IMG/VR virus record: IMGVR_UViG_3300037421_000080
Location: 106,086-136,935 of that record
Direction: 5' to 3' (one strand)
Length of the DNA: 30,850 nucleotides
Source: a virus
Taxonomy: Duplodnaviria > Heunggongvirae > Uroviricota > Caudoviricetes
The translations under genes were made by a program, and so were the position numbers. The notes under the pieces were generated by a model, which worked only from the letters and a program-made list of their open reading frames with translations, was not told the origin of the DNA and made no database searches. Shown here piece after piece: positions 1,124 through 6,152 of this stretch (positions are counted from its first letter, which is position 1; every line of letters starts with the position of its first letter).

Positions 1124-1329
1124 TATTTCACTCCTAGAAGTTCGTTGTCTCCCATGCTTTCTAGCTCGGAGATTCTCGTATCTCGGACATAGTTCGCTAC
1201 GAACCCGCGAAGGTCTTCAAACGGAACTTTGATTTCATCCGGAACGAGATCTCCGACTTGGATTATTACATCCCCATCGTATCCGCCATTATGGTGGAAG
1301 GTTGTTTTTCCTATTGTTGTTGAGTGCAT
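1123..1329 (-). CDS. Small hypothetical protein
   Basis: 3' part of ORF 1123..1509; likely start MHSTTIGK at 1329, overlapping the RNase H stop. Confidence 0.55.
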   Translation of the reverse strand: MHSTTIGKTTFHHNGGYDGDVIIQVGDLVPDEIKVPFEDLRGFVANYVRDTRISELESMGDNELLGVK

Positions 1330-1799
1330 CGGAACCCCTTCGCCAGTCGAGTACATTCTCTGTCGCACCACTGATTCCACTTCGACGTAGGTAGCCCGTT
1401 CCGTTTCCGGAAGCCCTGCTTCAATTCGATTTTCGTAGGATGGCCCGCTACCAGAACCACCTTCCACTTCCGGTTCCTTCGCAGGTCTAGTGTCCTTATC
1501 CGCAGCCAATCGGGGATGCCCTTGAAGCTATTGCTGGTGGTGAGGCGGAGCAGTGTGATGCGGGAATCGGTGTAGAGGATTCCGCCGAAGAAGTTGTCAG
1601 GCATTGCTTCTAGTGCTTCCGTTGCTGCGAATAGCTCCGAGAAATTGTTTGACGTGGGCTTTCCGCCGTTGGGGAACAGCTTGCCGGAATCTTTATCTAG
1701 GACTTTTCCATCTTCGGTCAGCACCCAGGCCCAAGTGCCCCCAAACGGGCTGGGGTTCTTTTTCACAACTCCTCCGTCGCAGTACAATTCAAGAGTCAA
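1311..1799 (-). CDS. rnhA: Ribonuclease H (type I / RNase HI-like)
   Basis: YCDGG, NNFSELFA, YTDS, AGHP and WCDR motifs supply the D-E-D-D catalytic set plus His; TTG start with GGAGG RBS. Confidence 0.85.
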   Translation of the reverse strand: MTLELYCDGGVVKKNPSPFGGTWAWVLTEDGKVLDKDSGKLFPNGGKPTSNNFSELFAATEALEAMPDNFFGGILYTDSRITLLRLTTSNSFKGIPDWLRIRTLDLRRNRKWKVVLVAGHPTKIELKQGFRKRNGLPTSKWNQWCDRECTRLAKGFRCTQQQ

Positions 1800-2058
1800 G
1801 GAACGCCCTCCGAAGTCTGGCCACCTCTTTCTTGCTAGCCGATCCAGGATCGGGCGAGTCGATCTCTATTCGGACAGTCCTCCCGGGATGGATTGACAGG
1901 GCTTCGCAGAGCTCCCTGGCTCGGTCCTGGGCTCTTGGCTCCGAATCGAAACATACAACTCTAGAAGGGTAAGCGGCCATTTTCTTAACTTGGGGCAAGG
2001 TCCAAGAAACTCCAAGAGTTGCAACAGCTCCCGGTCCAATGTTGATGGCATCACACAT
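1789..2058 (-). pseudogene. Orphan duplicate of the primase C-terminal TOPRIM half (displaced native 3' end)
   Basis: About 47 of 89 positions identical by manual alignment to the last ~90 aa of the primase at 2787..3662; lacks the EG of EGxxDA. Confidence 0.8.
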
Positions 2059-2782
2059 TCTCCATTTTTCTTTGTTTGGGGAGTATTCTCTTTATGGTTA
2101 CTCTTGACAATTGGAATATTTCCATCAATTTTTCAACAGACCATCCTATTTTTCTCAATGCTCGGATGGAGTTATTCCTTTTGTTGGTTCGTTTTTTGTT
2201 GTTGGCGGAGGCTAATCGCCGCATTGAAAGTTGCCTCTCCGGACTTATGTTGGCCCATCTTCTGATTATTTCTTTACTCTTTTGTTCTGTAGATAGGTTT
2301 TCCCAATATGCTTTTGCTCTACTCCTTGCCATTTCTGATCTTTGTTTCGCAGTGAATACGCTTCTGGAATGGTGATTTCCATTCTTGTCTCCAGAAGCGT
2401 GCTGTCCTAATTTTGTTGTTAATTCGTGGTGTTCTTCTGTCGTGATCCATTGCAGATTGTCTGCGCTGTCATTTAGCTTATTGCCGTCTTTGTGGTGTAC
2501 TTCTGGTTTGTTCTGGGGATTAGGCAGGAAGGCTTTTGCTACTAGTCTACTTACTTTGAACCAAAATTGCTTCCCATCCATTTTTCGAAGACCAACTCCA
2601 GCATACCCGTTTTTGCCTATTTTCTTCTTCATTGTTCTGGGCTTGAACCTCCTTGGGACTTTTTCTTTACTTCTGCCACAGAACTTCAGGCGAACTCTTC
2701 CCAGAGATCGAACTCCCCCTGAATTTGATACTTCGTATAAGTCCTCAAAATCTTCCACACTTGCCCAAATTTCTTTTGTCAT
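2051..2782 (-). CDS. NUMOD4-HNH homing endonuclease with C-terminal helical/HTH-like region
   Basis: EIWASVEDFEDLYEVSNSGGVRS (NUMOD4); VSRLVAKAFLPNPQNKPEVHHKDGNKLNDSADNLQW (HNH); AT-rich; ATG 2782 with AAGGA RBS. Confidence 0.9.
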   Translation of the reverse strand: MTKEIWASVEDFEDLYEVSNSGGVRSLGRVRLKFCGRSKEKVPRRFKPRTMKKKIGKNGYAGVGLRKMDGKQFWFKVSRLVAKAFLPNPQNKPEVHHKDGNKLNDSADNLQWITTEEHHELTTKLGQHASGDKNGNHHSRSVFTAKQRSEMARSRAKAYWENLSTEQKSKEIIRRWANISPERQLSMRRLASANNKKRTNKRNNSIRALRKIGWSVEKLMEIFQLSRVTIKRILPKQRKMENV

Positions 2783-2786
2783 AGGT

Positions 2787-3662
2787 TTATTCCTTGAAGA
2801 CAAATTTCCTGATTCTTTTGATTTCTTCTTTTTTACAAGAAGCGGGATCTTTTCCTGTATCCAATGTTATGGTTAAAGTTCTTCCGGGGAATATACTGAC
2901 TTCTTCGCTTAGTTTTCTGGCCATCTCTTGGGCTTTAGGTTCAGAATCGTAGCAGATTACTCTAAGTGGGTATTTACTTATTTTGTCAACTTGTGATCGA
3001 GAGTAGGAAACGCCTAGAGTTGCTACCCCTCCTGGTCCTATAGCGATAGCATCAAAAATGCCTTCCGTTACGATGATTGAGTGCAAAGCCTTGTCGCTAC
3101 CGAACAGCAAGCTCTTGGCCGGAATGCTCTCCTCTTCTGGCCTGGCATTGACGTAGCGGTAGCCCTCATCCATAAGGCTCCGAGTCGTCCACGATACTAT
3201 CTTGTTCCTATGCAATATCGGCAAAAAGAGCCTCCAGGAGAGCCTTGTGGCCATGCCGATTCCTTGTATTCCCCACTCCCTTGCCAGCTCGTCTGGATCG
3301 AAGTTCCTGCTTCGCAGATAGTCCCTGTGGATGGGCAGGAGAGGCCCCACTCCGTTGGGGATCACTAGCTTGCCAGTTGGTTTTTCGGCCCTCGGGGCGT
3401 CGGTATCTAACCCCCCTAGGAGGGCCTTTATAACGTGCCACGGCTTGCCGGAGGACTCGACCAGAGCTTCGGCTAGGCTATGGGAACCGCACTTCCAGCA
3501 CTTGGCTGCACGACTAGAGAGAGCGATGCCAAGGCCATACTTCCCCGTGCCTTCTCCGCACCAAGGGCAGATGATCCCCAGCCAGCCGACGGTGACGTGG
3601 GGAGTCTCACCGGCTTGCTTGTACTCTATCTCCAGCTCTTCGAGGATCTCGGTGATATTCAT
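2787..3662 (-). CDS. DNA primase (Zn finger plus TOPRIM domain)
   Basis: CPWC...CWKC Zn finger; VTEGIFDA and CYDSEP TOPRIM motifs. Confidence 0.85.
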   Translation of the reverse strand: MNITEILEELEIEYKQAGETPHVTVGWLGIICPWCGEGTGKYGLGIALSSRAAKCWKCGSHSLAEALVESSGKPWHVIKALLGGLDTDAPRAEKPTGKLVIPNGVGPLLPIHRDYLRSRNFDPDELAREWGIQGIGMATRLSWRLFLPILHRNKIVSWTTRSLMDEGYRYVNARPEEESIPAKSLLFGSDKALHSIIVTEGIFDAIAIGPGGVATLGVSYSRSQVDKISKYPLRVICYDSEPKAQEMARKLSEEVSIFPGRTLTITLDTGKDPASCKKEEIKRIRKFVFKE

Positions 3663-3967
3663 TTCTTATTGACTGTGAGATCGAGTTGTTCTTTATGCTT
3701 GAACGAGAAGGAGAATCCGCACTCTCCGCAGGAGCAGCGGTAGGAAACAAAGAACTCCCCGCCCCCGTCGGTCCCTAATTCCCAGTCCTCCCGGAGCGTA
3801 GCTCGTCCCTCTTCGTCGTTACCCGCTTCGAGTTCCTTCATCTTTTTCAGGAATTCCTTCTGCGGGATCTTGCCGTAGGACTCGTAGATCTCCTTCCCTA
3901 CTCTTTCCTTTTCGTCTTCCTCTTTCTTGATGCACGCGGGACAGCCAGTCCAGTTGTTGGCGCTCAT
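3659..3967 (-). CDS. Hypothetical Zn-binding phage protein
   Basis: CPAC near the N-terminus and CSCGEC near the C-terminus; ATGA-type coupling to neighbours. Confidence 0.68.
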   Translation of the reverse strand: MSANNWTGCPACIKKEEDEKERVGKEIYESYGKIPQKEFLKKMKELEAGNDEEGRATLREDWELGTDGGGEFFVSYRCSCGECGFSFSFKHKEQLDLTVNKK

Positions 3968-4188
3968 CTTGCTTTCCTTTCTTTGAGCAGTTTATGCGTG
4001 TCGGGCAGCAGCCTCTCCGCTATCTTGGAGGCACTGGCCCAGGTCACCTCCCAGCCATCGCTCCACTCCCCGTTGTCCTTCAGTTTTAGGACAGAACCGG
4101 GGATGGCGAATCTCTCCGGGAGCCAGGTGGTTTGGCGCTGGTTCCTGCGGGTCAGTTGACATTGACGGTAGAAGATTTCATTTGGCAT
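3964..4188 (-). CDS. Hypothetical protein
   Basis: 74-aa ORF coupled to its neighbours. Confidence 0.62.
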   Translation of the reverse strand: MPNEIFYRQCQLTRRNQRQTTWLPERFAIPGSVLKLKDNGEWSDGWEVTWASASKIAERLLPDTHKLLKERKAR

Positions 4189-4432
4189 CGGCGAGACCCT
4201 CCTTGATTATTTCCCCAATCGTTTTTTCGTCTGCTTCCTTGATGAATGTTTCAAGGGCAGTTAGTCCCCAGCGCTTGATTCGGTATCTCCTTAGTTGCTT
4301 GATGAAATTGGCTATTCCCTTTTTGAATCGCTTATCTCCGGGACTGTTGCAAAGTCTGTGGGCATCCAATAGCGCCAGTTGATCCCTCTCGGCGTAGATG
4401 CAAGCCAGCCGTAGCAATTCTTCCAGTTTCAT
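4178..4432 (-). CDS. Hypothetical protein
   Basis: ORF 4178..4444; likely start MKLEELL at 4432. Confidence 0.55.
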   Translation of the reverse strand: MKLEELLRLACIYAERDQLALLDAHRLCNSPGDKRFKKGIANFIKQLRRYRIKRWGLTALETFIKEADEKTIGEIIKEGLADAK

Positions 4433-4749
4433 CAGTCTAGCCACTCCACATCAGAGAAACGATAGTTCTCCTCGGCCTCCAGTTCCCAATCGTCTTCCTG
4501 TTGCTCATCTTGGATCTGCTCTACCAACCTCTTGGCATGGGGTATGGGCTCTTCCTTGTTCAGGTGGACGTTATCGACGATCTCTCCCTCTGGGTTGTGT
4601 AGCCTCAGCTCCGACCAGACCTTGAGGGAGCCAGCGAACAGGCCCATGACCCTGCGGCATTCCCACTCCGGGCCGCAGAAGATGCCTCGGGGCGGCCAAT
4701 TGTTGACTTTCATGATTACTCGCCAGAGATGGGGTTTTCCGTTTGTCAT
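4432..4749 (-). CDS. Hypothetical protein with acidic tail
   Basis: 105-aa ORF, ATGA overlap with the helicase stop, GGAGG RBS. Confidence 0.55.
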   Translation of the reverse strand: MTNGKPHLWRVIMKVNNWPPRGIFCGPEWECRRVMGLFAGSLKVWSELRLHNPEGEIVDNVHLNKEEPIPHAKRLVEQIQDEQQEDDWELEAEENYRFSDVEWLD

Positions 4750-6152
4750 CCTGCCTCCTCCGTTTCCTGTTCCTTTTGTAGCTCAATTGTCAGCAAGTCG
4801 AAGATGTCGTAGTTGTTCCCTTCGGTAGTTCCCCCATCTAACACCTGGTCGATGATCTCCTGCTTGTTTTGTAGGATCTCGACCAGGCGGACTTCGATTG
4901 TATCCCTTCCCACCAAGTACCAGTATTTCGATCTCATGCCTTCCTTGCCTCTGCCTATGCCCCTTGTTCTGCCCTCCGCCTGGGTGTGGGCTGTAGGCAC
5001 CCAGGCGAATTCTATCGTGGCGCTGTTGGGGACCCCCATGGCGGACCAGCCCTCACCTGCTGCCTTGATGTTGCCAAACAGTAGCTGGGTCTTCTTGGAG
5101 GTCAGGAACTTATCGTAGCTCAATTGACGGAATCTCCCTGTAACTGCTCCAGTCACCAAGACACTTTGCCTGTGGTACTTTTCGTGGAGGGCCTCCAGGA
5201 TCTTGCGGTGGATGCCAAATACGATTAGCTTCTCGTCACACTCCTGGAGGTAGTCGTCGATCCACTCACAGACTGCCTTGAGTTTGAGTTCAGACACGAG
5301 TTGCTTCAAATATGAAATCATTGTGACTCGTTCGGCTCTAGCTGATCGCCTAGCCTTCTCATGGCTGTACTTCTCAGCTAGCCATCTCAGAAACTCCCTT
5401 CGAGCGTAGTTGTATTGCTTGCGGTCTTCGATCTCCAAGGGGAGGATGATACGTCGTTTGGGAGGCAAATCTTTTAGAACGTCAATTTCTCGCAACCTCA
5501 AAAGACATTCTTTTCCAAGTTTGCGGTGTAATCTCGGCAGTTGGGTCGCTCCCTTAAACTCCCATTGCCCGAACCTCCCCCGCTTGGGATCGCAATAGGT
5601 CATGGCGTAGGGATAGAAGTTAGGGTACATATCAGGGCGGACGATATGCAGAGGGTGGTATAAGTCCGCCGGGCGGTTGGCCAGAGGGGAGCCGGAGAGC
5701 ACCATGACTGGATCTATCTCCTCTGCTAGTTCCTTGGCTGCTTTGGACCTCTTGCTCTCGGCATGGCAAACCGCATGACCTTCATCGAAGGCCACGACTT
5801 GGATTTTGAGTCTTTTCAAGTAGGGAAGCCACGCTGCCAGGATGTCGTAGTTGATGATAGTCAGAGGGGGCACATCGATCAGCTTCCTCCACTTTCTGGG
5901 TCTCATCCCCTCCAGAATCTCTGTTCTCATGCTGCAATGCTTGGCTGCCTCGCGAGCCCAGTTCCACTTCAATCCGGCAGGGCACACCACCAGAGCCGGG
6001 CGTAGCTCTGGATGGCATACGAGGTACATGAGATAGAGCAGGCTCTTGCCCAGTCCGTAGTCCCAGGCCACGAGGGCGTTCCCGCCGAACTGCTCCAGCT
6101 GCCACAGGCCCTCCTTCTGGTAGGGGTAGGGCTTCGTGTTCAGCTTCGGCAT
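4746..6152 (-). CDS. SNF2-family (HARP/SMARCAL1-like) helicase/translocase
   Basis: PYPYQKEG, YGLGKS (motif I), INYDIL, FDEGH (II), LSGSP (III), AAGEG (V), QAEGR (VI); likely start MPKLN at 6152. Confidence 0.9.
   Translation of the reverse strand: MPKLNTKPYPYQKEGLWQLEQFGGNALVAWDYGLGKSLLYLMYLVCHPELRPALVVCPAGLKWNWAREAAKHCSMRTEILEGMRPRKWRKLIDVPPLTIINYDILAAWLPYLKRLKIQVVAFDEGHAVCHAESKRSKAAKELAEEIDPVMVLSGSPLANRPADLYHPLHIVRPDMYPNFYPYAMTYCDPKRGRFGQWEFKGATQLPRLHRKLGKECLLRLREIDVLKDLPPKRRIILPLEIEDRKQYNYARREFLRWLAEKYSHEKARRSARAERVTMISYLKQLVSELKLKAVCEWIDDYLQECDEKLIVFGIHRKILEALHEKYHRQSVLVTGAVTGRFRQLSYDKFLTSKKTQLLFGNIKAAGEGWSAMGVPNSATIEFAWVPTAHTQAEGRTRGIGRGKEGMRSKYWYLVGRDTIEVRLVEILQNKQEIIDQVLDGGTTEGNNYDIFDLLTIELQKEQETEEAG

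Follow-up and report, generated by a model that had tools for sequence, protein, structure and literature searches.

A probable homing cassette with a replacement primase 3' end and a NUMOD4-HNH endonuclease gene at the TOPRIM Glu-Gly motif of an uncultured phage

Layout of the primase locus

The locus described here lies in a 30,850-nt stretch of phage DNA (the window), which forms the last 30.85 kb (positions 106,086 to 136,935) of the 136,935-bp uncultured IMG/VR virus record IMGVR_UViG_3300037421_000080 (estimated completeness 79%). At this locus the gene of a predicted DnaG-like primase is followed by a free-standing homing endonuclease gene of the NUMOD4-HNH type, then by a second copy of the primase 3' end and finally by an RNase H gene, and all genes of the region are carried by the minus strand (Table 1). 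Below, the first 201 residues of the primase are called the N-part, its present C-terminus the resident end, and the downstream copy the remnant. The reading frames of primase, endonuclease and remnant are all intact. An initial annotation, made from the letters of the window alone, had seen an AT-rich TOPRIM half, a NUMOD4-HNH gene and a second TOPRIM half in this succession, and all three were found where it had placed them.

Table 1. Features of the primase locus, in window positions, with GC content at third codon positions (GC3)
Feature	Position	Strand	GC3	Remarks
Primase gene	3662..2787	-		291 aa; Pfam Toprim_2 at residues 197-273
Native 5' primase part (N-part), residues 1-201	3060..3662	-	0.71	Zinc-finger CxxC...CxxC and core, up to TOPRIM Glu200-Gly201; end-to-end alignment with ~290-aa homologues
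Primase 3' end read as foreign replacement (resident end), residues 202-291 and stop	2787..3059	-	0.31	Second TOPRIM half, D239-S-E241
Free-standing homing endonuclease gene	2051..2782	-	0.39	243 aa; NUMOD4, HNH_3 (I-HmuI-like) and C-terminal HTH_7, by Pfam
Second copy read as displaced native primase 3' end (remnant)	1789..2058	-	0.52	89 codons, frame intact; homology spans D204 to the C-terminus
RNase H translation signals within the remnant	1797..1811	-		GGAGGG at 1811-1806, 6-nt spacer, TTG start at 1799-1797
RNase H gene, native downstream neighbour	1311..1799	-	0.64	Pfam PF00075, E 4e-6

Alignments with homologues of ~290 aa span 98-100% of the primase. Searches that covered 5.8 billion proteins, together with IMG/VR and cultured phages, returned hundreds of such uninterrupted homologues, all of them metagenomic and none more than 54% identical; one of these searches gave 3,632 hits for the primase family. 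Every residue that is invariant in the family (C32, C35, C55, C58, E200, G201 and D239 among them; for E200 and G201 this holds in 262 sequences) is kept in the primase, which matches PF13155 with 25.9 bits (cut-off 22.1). With its CxxC...CxxC pairs, the TOPRIM Glu and an acidic motif of the DxD/DxE kind, the protein has the sequence features expected of a DnaG-like TOPRIM primase. One residue is atypical: at position 202, directly after the Glu-Gly pair, it has Ile, while 225 of the 262 homologues have Pro. A divergent-first alignment contained no stretch conserved enough for scanning.

The endonuclease matches PF07463 (NUMOD4; 45.3 bits, cut-off 23.4; E 1e-11), PF13392 (HNH_3; 32.1 bits, cut-off 24.8; E 9e-8) and HTH_7 (E 1.2e-5), all with intact domains. 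Its gene has a GC content of 0.41, and the closest homologues of the protein are at most 49% identical over about half its length. At the DNA level, the best cultured-phage match to the region is an HNH gene of Bacillus phages. I-HmuI and I-HmuII of the Bacillus phages SPO1 and SP82 are NUMOD4-HNH nicking endonucleases, and the protein of the window shares the NUMOD4 plus HNH_3 catalytic architecture of this family; I-HmuI, however, is encoded in a group I intron, whereas no intron is present here and an HTH_7 of the resolvase type forms the DNA-binding C-terminus. A second NUMOD4-HNH homologue occurs in the same phage (L002, G000:C1:32110-32478; 34% identity, E 9e-10), outside the marked AT-rich islands.

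Primase and endonuclease are separate cistrons. The primase ends with a TAA at 2789-2787, and the likely start of the HNH gene is the ATG at 2782, with an AAGGA 8 nt upstream, within the final primase codons. As this Shine-Dalgarno sequence sits in the resident primase end, resident end and HNH gene form one translational unit. A promoter search for the HNH gene gave merely weak consensus matches, inside the gene, and co-transcription with the primase is assumed. An intein is ruled out, given the primase stop codon, the Shine-Dalgarno sequence and ATG of the HNH gene itself, and the lack of a Hint domain in the Pfam search of the HNH protein. Group I and group II introns were likewise rejected: an Rfam scan of 1200-3800 on both strands, with matches up to E=1 considered, found none, and the primase ORF (open reading frame) is complete without splicing.

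The endonuclease ORF sits between the two copies of the primase 3' end. Between the remnant and primase residues 202-286, 47 of 85 amino acids are identical (55%, E 3e-31), close to the 53% of the first estimate, and the resident end and the remnant share 56% of their nucleotides overall. In the alignment with the 262 family members, homology of the remnant begins at D204-A205 of the motif EGIFDA, while the two codons ahead of DA, ATG TGT against ATT TTT in the primase, have two of three bases in common in each. The statement that the second copy begins exactly at the DA holds to within ~2 codons. At the DNA level there is a repeat (2006-2058 versus 3007-3059; 75% identity over 53 nt) whose period is exactly 1001 bp, in agreement with the ~1.0 kb element suggested at first, and the 5' boundary of the foreign primase end is uncertain by ~15 bp. 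The stop codon of the HNH gene (TGA, 2053-2051) overlaps codons 2-3 of the remnant, and the RNase H start overlaps the remnant end by 11 nt; the ribosome-binding site and TTG start of RNase H lie inside the last remnant codons, as had been noticed from the letters.

Origin of the two primase 3' ends

Composition distinguishes the two copies. In a record with 54.0% GC (SD 4.8% per 300 bp), the resident end and the HNH gene form a low-GC island (2016-3115), one of only two in the whole 137-kb record that exceed 1 kb at <43% GC. Within the primase, a two-segment likelihood model with a permutation test put the GC3 change point at codons 197-201 (~3071-3060), where GC3 falls from 0.71 to 0.31 (likelihood ratio 21, permutation p<=0.005); this point lies within five codons of the homologous start of the remnant. 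The remnant had a significantly higher GC3 than the resident copy (p 0.002), in line with the greater share of GC-ending codons first ascribed to the second copy, and its value is intermediate.

The only other AT-rich island of >1 kb in the record (island 151-1450 of L085:8-2149, G000:C1:8-2149) concerns a different gene: a radical-SAM gene is interrupted in frame just behind its CxxxCxxC motif (CEFRCAFC/ILEGTKI ... THN/CCIS) by an insert that carries an HNH-like motif and is probably an intein with an HNH endonuclease.

Phylogeny was examined over the two parts of the protein. Among 261 homologues, identity to the N-part correlated with identity to the remnant (Spearman rho 0.36, p 3e-9), while its correlation with identity to the resident C-terminus was not significant (rho 0.10, p 0.11); after control for amino-acid composition (GARP versus FYMINK), the partial correlations were 0.34 for the remnant and 0.15 for the resident end. 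Moreover the best matches of the remnant (P0005, P0011, P0003, P0008, P0007 and P0014) were also the best matches of the N-part. In a quick tree of the C-domain, built on 87 columns, the remnant joined P0003, P0011, P0007 and P0014 (92 in the Shimodaira-Hasegawa-like approximate likelihood-ratio test, SH-aLRT) and the resident end joined P0084, P0089, P0117 and P0065; in the N-domain tree, the primase of the window was sister to P0007 (SH-aLRT 83, ultrafast bootstrap 89). Separate placement of the two C-termini, as had been suggested, thus brought the remnant together with the nearest relatives of the N-part and the resident end elsewhere.

The two copies were also regrafted at the position of the N-part on the N-domain backbone. 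The resident end cost 9.3 log-likelihood units there, with a bootstrap proportion from resampled log-likelihoods (bp-RELL) of 0, an expected likelihood weight (c-ELW) of 4e-4 and a Kishino-Hasegawa (KH) p of 0.064. The remnant cost 4.1 units and was rejected by no test. The verdict on placement rests on RELL, ELW and KH, the approximately unbiased (AU) value being degenerate (1e-32).

Operon layout provides the third line of evidence. RNase H follows the primase in the relatives L026, L004, L005, L046 and L047, and the translation signals of RNase H lie in the remnant, which marks the remnant as the native end. Composition, phylogeny and operon architecture, three independent lines, therefore agree in supporting the ~1.0 kb segment (resident primase 3' end plus HNH gene) as the incoming unit and the downstream copy as the displaced native end, as the initial annotation had held. 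Consistent with this, the HNH-free relatives closest in the N-part carry a C-terminus of the remnant type and not of the resident type. The HNH-free relatives, none of them closer than 54% identity, have a single C-terminal copy of the remnant type.

The remnant shows no visible decay. Against a hidden Markov model (HMM) of the family C-domain, built without the resident end and without the remnant, it scored 124.4 bits, the resident end scored 124.7 bits, and the family median was 124.0; all invariant family residues are kept in the remnant. Since its score is at the family median and its invariant residues are all in place, the remnant was either displaced recently or is still under constraint. 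It is not a conserved stand-alone gene: among the 5.8 billion proteins, stand-alone homologues of 48-156 aa were absent except for its own sequence from a second assembly. The identical 291-aa primase and the identical HNH protein were present in two independent assemblies (JGI/IMG and Logan), and a 1,034-bp Logan contig also encodes the remnant.

Several observations weigh against the displacement of a native end by an incoming one: i) the remnant has a significantly lower GC3 than the N-part (p 0.003), with 0.42 in its first half and 0.62 in its second; ii) the 5' half of the remnant (1924-2058) is nearer to the resident copy, with 67-73% nucleotide identity versus 37-57% later, and its first 60 nt are the part most like the resident copy; iii) the Shimodaira-Hasegawa test does not reject the resident end at the N-part position (0.28), and an AU test on the 87 columns does not reject the two copies as sisters (p 0.48), the C-domain tree alone being unable to decide because it has only these columns; iv) a second C-terminal primase copy was kept in none of 80 related IMG/VR loci (L003-L082) and in none of 88 further loci scanned; v) no close relative without the HNH gene was found in the 5.8 billion proteins, IMG/VR or cultured phages, the best primase being 54% identical, so the allele "before" insertion has not been seen; vi) the donor was not found, the best match to the resident end being 58% identical. 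As to the first two points, the remnant may be chimeric or itself an older import, and the likeness of its 5' half to the resident copy could stem from the conserved GPGAVATLG motif, a crossover inside the remnant, an older import or gene conversion between the copies. Among cultured phages (blastn and tblastn) there was no near relative of the locus, the best identity being 26%.

The TOPRIM Glu-Gly site is a hotspot reused across relatives

Searches of IMG/VR with the primase, the HNH protein and the primase of locus L055, each as a single query, gave neither a near relative nor a donor. L055 (IMGVR_UViG_3300049070_000101, 4577-5544) comes from a phage with 61% GC; the GC3 of its primase is 0.80 up to a break twelve codons ahead of the EG motif and 0.36 beyond it. 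A gene for a NUMOD4-HNH-HTH_7 protein follows directly after the primase stop and the next gene begins after ~80 bp, with no remnant between them. The cassette of L055 and that of the window are only distantly related and share 51% identity in the primase C-terminus and 28% in the HNH protein.

Eight primases, that of the window counted, had a significant GC3 change point. In six of the eight (the window, L055, L067, L037, L057 and L016) the break lies no more than 12 codons from the Glu-Gly, and in three of them no more than one codon away. In L067, L037, L057 and L016, whose primase is at ~4001-4900 or 1401-2297 of the locus, the breaks are 0-7 codons from EG and no endonuclease gene follows downstream; these breaks may be scars of past 3'-end replacement after loss of the endonuclease.

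The same site is occupied differently in two other relatives. P0158 (612 aa; insert at residues ~200-520) and L127 (3598-4578) have in-frame inserts of ~320 aa immediately before (C/T)EG, with the blocks CYxxDT..LT..GW at the start, then TQNH and VYCCTVDTGFIVV.NG, and ...GN/C at the end. The inserts had no match in Pfam or PDB sequence searches. Judged by these motif blocks they appear intein-like, and they may represent an unrecognised intein family at the very site of the HNH cassette. In L109 (2591-3001), L127 (2351-3004) and L168 (2841-2960), a NUMOD4-HNH gene also precedes the primase immediately and stops at the primase start codon. This endonuclease family is drawn to either end of the primase gene, and the TOPRIM Glu-Gly site is a hotspot that has been reused across relatives.

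Proposed homing mechanism, its rivals and known systems

We consider it likely that a 1001-bp mobile cassette, consisting of a foreign primase 3' end (~90 codons) and a NUMOD4-HNH gene, homed into the primase at its TOPRIM Glu-Gly motif. Homing would have started in a co-infected cell, where the endonuclease of a cassette-bearing phage would cut or nick an HNH-free primase allele at or next to the EGxxDA codons. The upstream end of the break would invade the donor primase, and the donor 3' end and HNH gene would be copied. The new DNA would finally be linked to the DNA downstream of the break, which would begin at the cut site, by end joining or microhomology or by pairing with a primase fragment that the donor already had behind its HNH gene, in the manner of WHO elements. 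The outcome would be a complete chimeric primase whose active site unites the native Glu200 with a foreign Asp-x-Glu half. The HNH gene would be translated from the Shine-Dalgarno sequence in the new gene end, and the old 3' end would be stranded downstream, where it would still supply the ribosome-binding site and start codon of RNase H. That the compositional junction and the remnant start fall at the same codon would follow from their common origin in one break at the cut site.

Whether a remnant is left would depend on the sequence behind the HNH gene. With donor-recipient homology there, repair would be two-sided and leave no remnant, as in L055 and in the intronless homing of T4 (PMC2988022); the old end would stay behind if such homology were lacking or if, as in WHO elements (PMC7282813), a fragment in the donor acted as homology arm. 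The recoded resident junction is presumably resistant to the endonuclease, as it differs from the remnant in 25% of the nucleotides over 53 nt and has I202 in place of the usual Pro.

A different account would divide the event in two, and we hold it to be improbable: ordinary intronless homing by a T4-style free-standing HNH gene, with the AT-rich 3' end as co-conversion tract, combined with an unrelated duplication, in which the second copy arose either by a separate tandem duplication or by duplication in situ before HNH insertion and divergence. L055 displays exactly the co-conversion pattern without a remnant, free-standing phage endonucleases are known to cut some way from their own gene and to co-convert the stretch in between (PMC2988022), and the AU test mentioned above does not reject the two copies as sisters. 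This account, however, leaves unexplained why the remnant start and the compositional break coincide (~5 codons), as expected from one break; moreover, duplicates formed in situ would share their composition, whereas their GC3 values are 0.31 and 0.52 (p 0.002), the copies have diverged by 45% in protein and yet neither has decayed, and only the remnant tracks the N-part. Free-standing homing of the T4 type without any duplication was rejected: a stand-alone gene and a putative conversion tract of ~270 bp are present, but the duplicate target end remains.

There is likewise only a slight chance that the remnant is a functional gene retained as such, either as a TOPRIM half-domain modulator of the primase or RNase H, or as a frame kept open for translational coupling of RNase H. 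Its intact frame, the preservation of all invariant and near-invariant residues and the median HMM score would suit such a role, as would the RNase H signals in its end and an ATG 4 nt before the HNH stop, which could permit re-initiation. Yet the remnant lacks the catalytic Glu, the GGAG only 1 nt from the ATG is poorly spaced, neither stand-alone homologues nor second copies occur in the proteins and the 80 + 88 loci searched, and a recent insertion accounts equally well for the absence of decay. A functional remnant would in any case concern its later fate and is compatible with its origin as a displaced native end. An assembly artefact, in which two strain variants of the primase 3' end from an uncultured metagenome contig were stitched in tandem, is very improbable, as the copies are 56% identical in nucleotides with a full HNH gene between them, unlike collapsed or expanded strain variants, the same primase (spanning the upstream junction) and HNH protein recur in two assemblies with the remnant encoded on the Logan contig, and reading frames, overlaps and ribosome-binding sites are all coherent.

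The proposed homing cassette has parallels in eukaryotes. Gene hybrids created by mobile ORFs (mORFs) are known from fungal mitochondria, in atp6 of Allomyces macrogynus and in atp6, atp9, cox2 and nad3 of Glomus (PMC3630166), and C-terminal duplications of cob and atp6 from Endoconidiophora (PMC6279837). Their layout is the same, with a gene core, an inserted foreign C-terminus, an endonuclease ORF and the native C-terminus downstream (PMC3630166, PMC6279837); as in the window, it is the inserted end that has diverged and the native end that is like relatives, and neither intron nor intein is needed. On the other hand, mORFs reside in organelles and encode LAGLIDADG or GIY-YIG endonucleases that are fused in phase, whereas the element of the window has a phage host and a NUMOD4-HNH gene that is a separate cistron after a stop codon; furthermore the replaced part here is half of a catalytic TOPRIM domain, and translation of the next gene starts within the remnant.

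In the yeasts Torulaspora and Lachancea, the 3' end of FBA1 is replaced by homing WHO elements (Coughlan et al. 2020, PMC7282813). Their unit, too, consists of a resistant 3' end of an essential gene with an endonuclease gene behind it (resistance being presumed here), and in both cases trees of the 5' part of the target gene disagree with those of its 3' part. WHO proteins are intein-derived LAGLIDADG-zinc-finger nucleases, act in meiosis and leave clusters of decayed fragments, whereas the window holds one HNH gene and one undecayed remnant; cleavage has been demonstrated for WHO6, while the activity of the phage HNH protein is predicted from sequence. The phage host, the NUMOD4-HNH family, the separate cistron and the replacement of half a catalytic domain set the element of the window apart from mORFs and WHO elements alike.

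Among phages, the Seg and Mob endonucleases of T-even phages (PMC2988022) resemble the HNH gene of the window as free-standing phage-borne genes between essential replication genes, and presumably the HNH protein also cuts in the neighbouring gene at a distance (~270 bp here) with co-conversion of the interval, a scheme that L055 fits exactly. In T4, however, both flanks recombine homologously and no duplicate is left, whereas here the duplicate is retained; the T4 homing review (PMC2988022) does not contain the word "duplicat" in its text. T4 Mob proteins combine HNH with zinc-finger regions, in contrast to the NUMOD4 and HTH_7 found here. Genes in pieces (nrdA/mobE of Aeh1 and gene 39/60 with mobA of T4; PMC2988022) are alike in that an endonuclease gene lies in an essential phage gene without intron or intein, but they yield two polypeptides that reassemble, whereas here a single polypeptide is kept because a spare end is supplied.

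The evidence supports a 3'-end-replacing homing element of the mORF/WHO type, a kind known from fungal mitochondria and yeast, here in a phage host; no phage description of this layout was found in the open-access full-text literature. More tentatively, and with less confidence than for the homing event itself, phages may carry a general and so far undescribed class of WHO/mORF-like cassettes made of an endonuclease gene and a resistant replacement of the target end. In this primase family the TOPRIM Glu-Gly site might then be a common target of three kinds of invader, namely inteins, HNH genes with simple co-conversion and remnant-leaving HNH cassettes, and the remnant might serve as downstream homology arm for jumps between phages that differ in gene order after the primase, being kept intact as it also carries the RNase H start.

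For a selfish endonuclease, such a cassette opens access to the catalytic and most conserved portion of an essential phage replication gene and requires neither intron nor intein nor a split of the gene; the cost is a chimeric active site that pairs a native Glu with a foreign acidic motif. It would also explain mosaic 3' ends: several relatives have their compositional break at the same motif, so that replacement driven by endonucleases may regularly bring about horizontal transfer of domains in phage replication genes. Replacement of 3' ends would further give rise to discordant trees and to small "hypothetical" ORFs that are in fact displaced gene ends. In annotations, the 89-aa ORF is best named a primase 3' remnant, and the junction gives enzymologists a prediction of the site that a new NUMOD4-HNH enzyme recognises.

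Upstream of the primase, at 3659-4188, two small ORFs without a Pfam match encode a 102-aa protein rich in CxxC pairs and a 74-aa protein.

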